From a virus (lineage: Duplodnaviria; Heunggongvirae; Uroviricota; Caudoviricetes), in IMG/VR virus record IMGVR_UViG_2526164690_000021: a DNA stretch of 12,182 bases; one strand, written 5' to 3'. The stretch's first letter is position 1; each line of letters starts with the position of its first letter. Both the position numbers and the translations under genes were made by a program. Below, piece after piece: positions 6,540 to 7,278 of this stretch. The notes beneath the pieces were generated by a model. The model saw nothing but the letters and a program-made list of their open reading frames with translations, made no database searches and was not told the origin of the DNA.

Positions 6540-6626
6540 TTGGGTAATAAATATGAGTAATGACAAAAAATTGACACTGAGCGTTACGAAAACAGTCCGC
6601 ACATCTGGCGTGGCGGTTTATCTGAT

Positions 6627-7061
6627 GTGGAGCTGGCAGAGTGGTTGATACATAAAGCTAATGCGCTGCTCTGGCGTTTGTCAGCCAGAGAACAGCGCAA
6701 GGAAACCAGAATAAAGCTGGCTGATGCAGAAGCGTGTGCCGGGCTTATTGAGGATTATACAAATCTTGGTATTTCTTCAGCAGAGAGTGATCCCATTCAG
6801 CCTCTGAGCAGGGAGTCAATCCAGCACGCTGGTTGTATGGCACATCTTGTAACTGCTCGTCAACATGAGGTGGGTATTGGATCACTTCCGGTGGGATATT
6901 CGCTGATTCCAGAGCTGGTTGAAGCAAGAAAATCAGTTCAGAAAAAGAGAGATGACGCACTTCAATTATTGAGAGAGCACTATGGCGCGATACCAGAATG
7001 CGAACAGCGTCGATACCCTGAAGGTTATGAATGGATGCAGTCTCTTTTTGAAGTTCGCTAA
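6627..7061 (+). CDS. Hypothetical protein; probable true start ATG 6553 if the A6 run at 6565-6570 is really A7 (about 170 aa)
   Basis: Frame open from 6564 to 7061 but with only a GTG start and no SD; ATG 6553 in the +1 frame would join it with one extra A. First-codon-position G enrichment (about 35%) favours this strand over the antisense ORF 6745..7201. Confidence 0.4.
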   Translation: MELAEWLIHKANALLWRLSAREQRKETRIKLADAEACAGLIEDYTNLGISSAESDPIQPLSRESIQHAGCMAHLVTARQHEVGIGSLPVGYSLIPELVEARKSVQKKRDDALQLLREHYGAIPECEQRRYPEGYEWMQSLFEVR

Positions 7062-7278
7062 TCAATATGTCGAGACGAAGGTATGTTTCGGCGCGCAGCC
7101 AGGCTCTGTAATCCGGGAGCATTTCGGGGCTGTTACACCAGCGGTTTGTTGCTGCAACATTTAATACATGAGCCTGATAAAGGCTTTTCAAAAAATACAT
7201 GTCGAACCTCCTCTGGTTCTGTCGATTGGGAACCACAGATTATATCCGGAGGAAGGTTCGGCACCAGATGAGGTAGCC

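Follow-up and report, generated by a model that had tools for sequence, protein, structure and literature searches.

A conserved antisense pair of protein genes in a Rac-like Escherichia coli prophage, of which only the minus-strand gene is intact in the analysed window

The 12,182-nucleotide (nt) stretch of viral DNA analysed here (IMG/VR record IMGVR_UViG_2526164690_000021; hereafter the window) lies, around the locus of interest, in a Rac-like lambdoid prophage of E. coli, and its positions 6100-7400 are 100% identical to the chromosomes of O103, O111 and related enterohaemorrhagic E. coli (EHEC). At this locus, two open reading frames (ORFs) run towards each other on opposite strands. We find that they are a conserved antisense gene pair, of which only the minus-strand gene is intact in the window. 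Probably, the locus is a two-gene module in which unrelated proteins are encoded convergently, the 3' parts of the genes sharing the same DNA over 317 nt in the window and 260-269 nt in distant loci. The features concerned are the following.

6553-7061, plus strand: gene of the phrog_8304 family, 169 amino acids (aa) when intact, frameshifted at codon 11 in the window.
6553-6648, plus strand: 31-codon remnant read from the original ATG (translation MSNDKKLTLSVTKTVRTSGVAVYLMWSWQSG, then the stop at 6646-6648).
6584-6585, plus strand: the lesion, a one-base deletion, TT standing in alignments against TTT in every relative.
6627-7061, plus strand: residual 144-codon ORF with a GTG start and no Shine-Dalgarno (SD) sequence.
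6745-7200, minus strand: intact gene of a 151-aa ECs1072-family protein (ATG 7200-7198, stop 6747-6745).
6745-7061, both strands: doubly coding stretch of 317 nt, plus codons 66-169 lying opposite minus codons 48-151.
7207-7212, minus strand: SD sequence AGGAGG (CCTCCT on the plus strand), with a 6-nt spacer, TTCGAC, to the ATG.

Judged by its homologues and their substitutions, the minus-strand ORF qualifies as a genuine protein gene under purifying selection. A previous inspection of the DNA letters (the sequence-only reading) had noticed here a 152-aa ORF at 6745..7201 beginning MYFLKS, with AGGAGG 6 nt upstream of its ATG, and had kept a real convergent gene in play. The MYFLKS ORF does exist, its correct span being 6745-7200 and its length 151 aa; AGGAGG is indeed read at 7212-7207; and the convergent gene is borne out by purifying selection and by RefSeq, whose coding sequence (CDS) at this place is WP_000273724.1, "ECs1072 family phage-associated protein". 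The protein scores 105.7 bits (E = 2.1e-30) against the NCBIfam model NF033230, for which the curated cut-off is 70, in a full-length match that pairs residues 4-145 with positions 3-141 of the 142-position profile, and the distant homologues P0020, P0023, P0036 and P0007 likewise exceed the cut-off. Homologues measure 151-159 aa, reach down to 30% identity and form 41 clusters, spread over several prophage contexts in E. coli, Salmonella, Klebsiella, Serratia, Raoultella and Yokenella. Over the 46 codons that do not overlap the plus gene, the nonsynonymous substitution rate divided by the synonymous one (dN/dS) is 0.07-0.43 and substitutions are most frequent at third, then first, then second codon positions; in distant pairs, the proportion of synonymous differences (pS) in these codons is saturated at 0.63-1.0, with a proportion of nonsynonymous differences (pN) of 0.2-0.34. 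AlphaFold2 gives a confident model (predicted local distance difference test score, pLDDT, 90.7; predicted template modelling score, pTM, 0.87; alignment of 35 sequences), and the gene is intact in all of the approximately 15 lineages examined. The object conserved on the minus strand is a 151-aa folded protein and not a regulatory RNA.

The plus-strand ORF, too, appears from its relatives to be a real gene of a conserved family. The PHROGs profile phrog_8304 matches the 144-aa residual ORF with E = 2.4e-100 over positions 27-169 of 169, the intact allele (P0013) covers positions 1-169, and the relatives P0049, P0058 and P0060 match with E = 2e-39 to 3e-21. Proteins of this family are usually 148-169 aa long; a full HMMER scan yielded 24 clusters (50% identity level), of which 16 reach E < 1e-10 and are 146-163 aa long, and the family is conserved to 25-46% identity at constant length. 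By tblastn, intact homologues with 35-51% identity were found in loci of Salmonella, Klebsiella, Serratia and metagenomes, irrespective of which of the two proteins had led to the locus: Salmonella loci retrieved via the minus protein contain intact plus ORFs of 47-51% identity, and the minus gene is intact in every locus retrieved via the plus protein (35-47% identity). The sequence-only reading had counted on a tblastn of both translations to reveal the conserved strand, and on conservation of one strand only to settle the matter; the comparison finds both families conserved at the protein level and singles out neither strand. In plus codons 1-64, outside the overlap, dN/dS is 0.04-0.12; the differences among E. 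coli relatives fall there almost entirely at third positions (for instance 2, 0 and 12, or 4, 1 and 10, at the first, second and third positions, respectively), and distant pairs show pS of 0.66-0.90 with pN of 0.20-0.36. Plus-protein motifs are conserved both outside and inside the overlap, those inside being AYAxLGLS, DPIxPLSxEAI and PxGYSxLPDL, and the plus ATG of distant loci is preceded by a good SD sequence (caGGAGGatatATG).

In the window, the plus copy had been treated as an accepted gene, and it turns out to be damaged. The window reads GCGTTACG; the corresponding letters are GCGTTTACG in O157:H7 and in every more distant E. coli relative. With TTT, the ATG at 6553 opens a 169-aa ORF that corresponds to the whole PHROG profile, and this ORF is complete in O157:H7 and in loci L011-L013. 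With TT, the first 11 codons are out of frame, the protein of the window is not complete from the family start (positions 1-169), and the residual ORF 6627-7061 is devoid of the conserved N-terminal motif SPHIWRGGLSD. The plus start problem had been recognized beforehand, together with the fact that one extra base would rescue it: the GTG at 6627 indeed has no SD sequence and one base does join the frame to the ATG at 6553, but that base is a T at 6584-6585. The missing A that had been suspected in the A6 run at 6565-6570 (A7 in an undamaged copy) is rejected on this ground. A rescue of the plus gene by programmed frameshifting at that run has no support: C AAA AAA makes no canonical X XXY YYZ heptamer, and the relatives do without a frameshift. 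Because of the deletion, the plus copy of the window is most likely a recent pseudogene, or gives at best an N-terminally truncated product. Among 452 complete E. coli genomes with the segment, 412 have TTT and hold the complete pair, and 40 have TT, the allele of the window, and do not.

Over the approximately 15 lineages, the plus gene is intact in 11, to about 35% identity; three have a frameshift in the non-overlapping part (the window allele, L009/L010 and L049), and one has lost the gene (L007). The frameshifts in L009/L010 (around plus residue 50) and in L049 (around residue 28) are both single-base changes and independent. No indel was seen inside the overlap in any lineage; such an indel would break the minus gene too. 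At L007 (Salmonella Minnesota, positions 4001-4462) and at L008, the minus gene stands alone, there is no plus homologue and the former plus frame contains seven stops.

The minus ORF had been described as spanning almost all of the plus ORF 6627-7061; the overlap of 317 nt amounts to 73% of it. The relation between the frames (first position facing first, second facing third, third facing second) is identical in all 11 complete pairs. We computed by exact dynamic programming the probability that the other frame stays open, given one of the two proteins. Over the overlap, this chance is 0.0005-0.38 per locus given either protein, and the log10 values sum to about -12.5 to -19 in each direction over 11 loci, not all of them independent. 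For the lineages ascertained via the minus protein, the probabilities of an open plus frame are 0.38, 0.09, 3.8e-5, 7e-3 and 6e-3; for those ascertained via the plus protein, the probabilities of an open minus frame have a product of 8e-6. The double ORF exceeds chance. Its codon cost can be seen at isoleucines that precede an A-initial codon, where the codon is the rare ATA, exactly the choice that prevents a stop on the opposite strand; L007, which has no plus gene, uses stop-creating codon combinations at those positions.

Substitution patterns point in the same direction. Inside the overlap, substitutions are spread evenly across codon positions, with pS of 0.28-0.59 in either frame, compared with 0.65-1.0 outside it, and pN of 0.30-0.46. 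L007 provides the control: in pairs that include it, third-position divergence of the minus frame in the former overlap is 0.66-0.69, versus 0.39-0.45 in matched pairs (Fisher p ≈ 2e-4), and outside the overlap the two sets of pairs do not differ. In the synonymous-site analysis across homologues that had been proposed, both frames are constrained in the overlap, and the constraint is gone in L007. An OLGenie-like test, from which the comparison of E. coli with L004 was left out (this ungapped set being misaligned by an indel), gave a minus dN/dS of 0.42 and a plus dN/dS of 0.58 in the E. coli group, 0.36 and 0.69 in the far trio (L058, L060 and L061), and 0.17 and 0.72 in L098-L100. All three minus values are significant; the plus values are marginal singly and reach p ≈ 0.02 when combined. 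One block is better kept in the plus protein (LGISSA, 0.65, versus LKKYQD, 0.38, in the minus protein), and past plus residue ~126 conservation is higher in the minus protein. Codon-usage log-odds in the overlap are +0.138 bits per codon for the plus frame and +0.199 for the minus frame, the other frames being negative; composition, which had been thought to favour the plus strand mildly, cannot arbitrate between the strands, because both frames score positive. Altogether, purifying selection appears to act on both frames, with weaker support for the plus frame inside the overlap.

The surroundings of the pair differ between lineages. In 9 of the approximately 15 lineages (the five E. coli types and the Klebsiella/metagenome types L058-L061, L098 and L100), the plus gene comes immediately after cro/YdaS or YdaT, is co-oriented with it and lies upstream of the replication genes, the minus gene facing the plus gene and its operon. 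In L004-L007, L009/L010 and L102, the neighbours are different. Where the pair has another site in Salmonella and Serratia, its internal arrangement is kept. In the Serratia marcescens locus (L102, 2501-2971), the pair is flanked by the terminase genes on one side and by a lysis cassette on the other, the cassette consisting of a holin, a lysozyme and a gene that hits the Acb2/Tad1-hairpin model of Pfam; this is a site typical of accessory or anti-defence genes, unlike the immunity-replication junction found elsewhere. The position among prophage accessory genes suggests a regulatory or host-protective role for both proteins. Neither protein gave a tblastn match in the phage genome collection, the scan of GTDB species representatives gave none, and no PADLOC or Pfam model or solved structure was matched that would assign them to an anti-phage defence or toxin-antitoxin system.

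Upstream of the minus gene lies an element whose 70-100 nt are better conserved than either protein (compared in the window, L003, L004, L005, L011-L013, L058, L060, L061, L098 and L100-L104). Two further features can be placed in it.

7239-7267, minus strand: putative sigma-70 promoter, with a -35-like CTGGTG at 7267-7262, a 17-nt spacer and a -10 TATAAT at 7244-7239.
7200-7263: conserved inverted repeat bracketing the putative promoter, arm 1 at 7200-7216 and arm 2 at 7248-7263.

The segment AGGAGGTTCGACATG is invariant in 9 of 11 lineages, even at 30-35% protein identity; L061 differs by one base, and L102, a twelfth lineage, has AGGAGGTTCAGAATG in its place. The -35-like TTGGTG/CTGGTG and the spacer CCGAACCTTCC are conserved across lineages, and the -10 varies (TATAAT in the window; GATAAT, TATATC and GATAGC elsewhere), with GAACCnAGGAGGTTCGACATG downstream. 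Arm 1 of the repeat comprises the SD sequence and ATG of the minus gene, and arm 2, within the promoter spacer, is complementary to that region. For positions 7192-7272, the folding energy is -31.8 kcal/mol for the plus-strand RNA (z = -4.36, none of 200 shuffles being as good) and -26.3 kcal/mol for the minus-strand RNA (z = -2.4); with RNAalifold, 12 base pairs are invariant over 9 lineages. We infer that the element may be the minus gene's own promoter, set inside a hairpin that would hide the SD sequence in read-through transcripts alone; it could just as well be an operator, or a structure that acts in the early transcript of the plus strand.

Two classical systems resemble this arrangement. 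In the transposase genes of IS10 and IS50, expression is limited by fold-back inhibition: an upstream sequence is complementary to the ribosome-binding site, and only read-through transcripts hide the SD sequence and AUG. The geometry at 7200-7263 is the same, a resemblance of structure only; unlike in the insertion sequences, the repeat of the window folds better in the plus-strand transcript (z = -4.36, as above) and could be a protein-binding site. In phage lambda, a leftward promoter between cII and the replication gene gives oop, an RNA antisense to the 3' end of cII, the gene after cro in the early-right operon; oop is ~77 nt long and non-coding, and shares a few dozen bases with cII. 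The map position in the window is the same, and the conserved -35/-10-like element would fit a leftward promoter. In contrast to oop, the antisense unit described here is a conserved 151-aa protein gene with an overlap of 260-317 nt, and a search of Rfam gave no match.

Several observations weigh against reading the locus as two functional genes with a regulated minus promoter. The consensus promoter scan did not flag 7239-7267, because the -35 is weak, and RNAalifold found no covariation in the hairpin over the 9 lineages, because both arms are invariant. Expression of ECs1072 comes down to one barely informative microarray mention (PMC2241611), and a ribosome-profiling (Ribo-seq) supplement for strain Sakai has no entry for it. 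Structure prediction for the plus protein is poor (pLDDT 43.5, from 6 near-identical sequences), and the plus gene must be dispensable, since three lineages carry independent frameshifts in it and another has lost it. Inside the overlap, the confidence interval of each of the three plus dN/dS values includes 1, a sign of weak selection, and past residue ~125 the plus C-terminus is poorly conserved, its stop lying anywhere from 148 to 197 aa. Finally, an open frame alone is weak evidence, because long antisense ORFs that are not conserved occur in some loci:

L058 2901-3245, plus strand: long third-frame ORF opposite the minus N-terminal half.
L060 2931-3230, plus strand: the same.
L061 2940-3236, plus strand: the same.
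L100 2781-3272, plus orientation: further third-frame ORF.
L103 2393-2905, plus orientation: further third-frame ORF.

These ORFs (98-171 aa) raised the possibility of a third coding frame facing the minus N-terminal half, which was rejected: they are not conserved and the substitution pattern there is that of a single gene. They look like chance shadow ORFs.

The C-terminal observations underlie one alternative, namely that both genes are real, that double coding is confined to plus residues ~66-122, and that the remaining tail of the plus protein is a functionless, tolerated read-through. Beyond residue ~126, plus conservation drops to 0.02-0.2 and minus conservation is still 0.26-0.58; the plus stop varies between 148, 149-151, 169 and 197 aa; and the plus dN/dS in the overlap (0.58-0.72) has intervals that reach 1. 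A tail free of function, however, does not fit with the conservation of both stop position and tail within each group, with the alignable tails of the far group (KKxxISAxxSxxF/CxxKxxD), or with a frame kept open to its stop at a measurable codon cost, and we regard this reading as improbable.

Another alternative, implied by the RefSeq/PGAP annotation, is that the minus strand alone codes, the plus ORF being a mere shadow that stays open because of the amino acids and codons of the minus gene. The NCBI pipeline PGAP annotates the minus gene alone in hundreds of genomes, and that gene has the perfect SD sequence and the confident fold; the plus copy is broken in the window and two other lineages and gone from L007; at L004, an open plus frame would arise with a probability of 0.38; and shadow ORFs that are not conserved occur nearby. 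Left unexplained are the 64 plus codons that lie outside the minus gene and have a dN/dS of 0.04-0.12 with saturated third positions, the conservation of the plus family to 25-46% identity at constant length, the ATA codon choices, the depressed minus-synonymous divergence and its release in L007, and the good SD sequence (caGGAGGatatATG) before the plus ATG of distant loci. The plus dN/dS outside the overlap and the L007 control largely refute this reading, which is very unlikely. The converse, a plus-only locus with a chance antisense ORF, to which the sequence-only reading had inclined, is refuted by the minus dN/dS values and fold: the plus ORF is a PHROGs family, is chosen by several gene callers and is co-oriented with the surrounding operon, but the minus gene has a dN/dS of 0.07-0.43 outside the overlap and significantly < 1 inside it, a pLDDT of 90.7 from a 35-sequence alignment and an invariant SD sequence and ATG, it persists intact without the plus gene in L007, and in the overlap the second positions of the plus frame vary at least as much as the third.

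If the locus is a convergent pair of protein genes, its expression might run as follows. The plus protein would be made from the early lytic transcript, and the minus protein from its own promoter while the early operon is repressed. Convergent transcription and a sense-antisense RNA duplex of 260-317 nt would then lead to mutually exclusive expression states, and the inverted repeat would sequester the SD sequence and AUG of the minus gene in read-through transcripts only, as in fold-back inhibition. The sequence-only reading had suggested that the minus gene might be an antisense regulator of the replication operon; interference of minus transcription with the early operon is plausible, because this transcription would run against it.

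The nearest published architecture is found in the Pseudomonas phage Fc02 (Beetrevirus), in which olg1/olg2 lie opposite gene 10 in the lysis-lysogeny region and for which lysogenic expression of one direction and lytic expression of the other have been proposed (PMC9936078). In both cases, the region is a regulatory one of a temperate phage, and an early lytic gene that follows a cro/ner-like gene is overlapped antisense by genes transcribed the other way; the likeness is one of architecture. In Fc02, the overlap takes in all of gene 10, and the repressor and the lysogenic genes have a transcript in common, whereas the genes described here are convergent, overlap by their 3' parts only and include a minus gene with its own promoter-like element. 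The Fc02 pair has RNA-seq data and exclusion phenotypes, whereas ours is known from sequence alone, with a deep comparative support that has not been reported for Fc02. Antisense genes have also been described in E. coli O157:H7 by Neuhaus, Scherer and colleagues: pop/ompA, ano/ECs2385, asa and laoB (PMC7103648, PMC5960689, PMC6294744, PMC5810103), and three more, oloz0137, oloz4542 and oloz5029, none of them in phage DNA (PMC9927249). Several of these genes are described as short ORFs inside an older 'mother' gene, some of them with a proposed origin via overprinting, and their support consists mainly of Ribo-seq and competitive growth. They belong to the same group of organisms and likewise involve a non-trivial antisense coding overlap that annotation pipelines suppress. 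In contrast, the partners described here are full-size families, each with a non-overlapping N-terminal half, and the pair is co-conserved to ~30% identity and moves between prophages as a unit. No report of the ECs1072/phrog_8304 pair was found in the literature.

Annotation has kept the pair out of sight. Every RefSeq record examined annotates the minus gene only, and PHROGs lists the two families separately, with their shared DNA unremarked. In four further isolate genomes, retrieved via the minus protein, the plus ORF is intact and uncalled, in a gap of ~320 nt after the minus gene. Such gaps, ~220-320 nt long, hold the plus start and N-terminal half:

L101 2975-3290: unannotated gap.
L103 2981-3198: unannotated gap.
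L104 2963-3279: unannotated gap.

Because gene callers leave this gap unannotated, the plus family is systematically missing from the annotations of isolate genomes. The pair is more than an ambiguity of annotation, and it exposes a systematic gap.

The neighbouring genes of the window, named after the RefSeq annotation of identical records and, for the YdaT-family gene, also the ORF list, are those of an immunity-replication junction.

4843-5321, minus strand: RelE/ParE-RelB toxin-antitoxin pair, directly adjoining the prophage repressor gene.
5349-5750, minus strand: cI-like repressor.
5858-6130, plus strand: YdaS/Cro.
6114-6539, plus strand: YdaT-family gene of the early-right operon, ending 13 nt before the ATG of the plus gene.
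7279-8369, plus strand: replication-initiator-like gene, divergent from the minus gene, a single 363-aa CDS in NZ_CP027331.
8376-9122: DnaC-like ATPase, followed by DUF1627 and DUF977 genes.

Note that the replication-initiator-like gene is split in the window into ORFs 7168-7920 and 7908-8369 by a homopolymer at 7818, which is A7 in the window and A8 in NZ_CP027331. Between the window and the near-identical EHEC record there are 3 substitutions and several indels, every one of the latter in a homopolymer run (at 7818 and also at 3114-3115, 4759 and 5814), which suggests sequencing errors in the source of the window, genuine slippage variants being possible too. The TT allele at 6584-6585 falls outside this pattern, since 40 genomes have it.

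Long antisense overlaps between protein genes of bacteria and phages are still disputed, and most cases consist of expression data on young, narrowly distributed ORFs. The pair described here has the opposite kind of support: full-size families, non-overlapping halves that serve as internal standards, and a loss-of-partner control in L007. In EHEC prophages, it stands between the immunity module and the replication module, a place at which induction could be affected by a strand-dependent switch. One could go further and see in the pair an old mobile two-protein unit, preserved across Enterobacterales prophages during the divergence of both proteins to about 30% identity, that acts through convergent transcription and RNA duplex formation as a built-in toggle, giving the plus protein in lytic growth and the minus protein in the lysogen, one at a time. 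This proposal is tentative and, in our opinion, rather doubtful; if it were true, the physical overlap itself would be the regulatory device, and not an accident of genome compaction.

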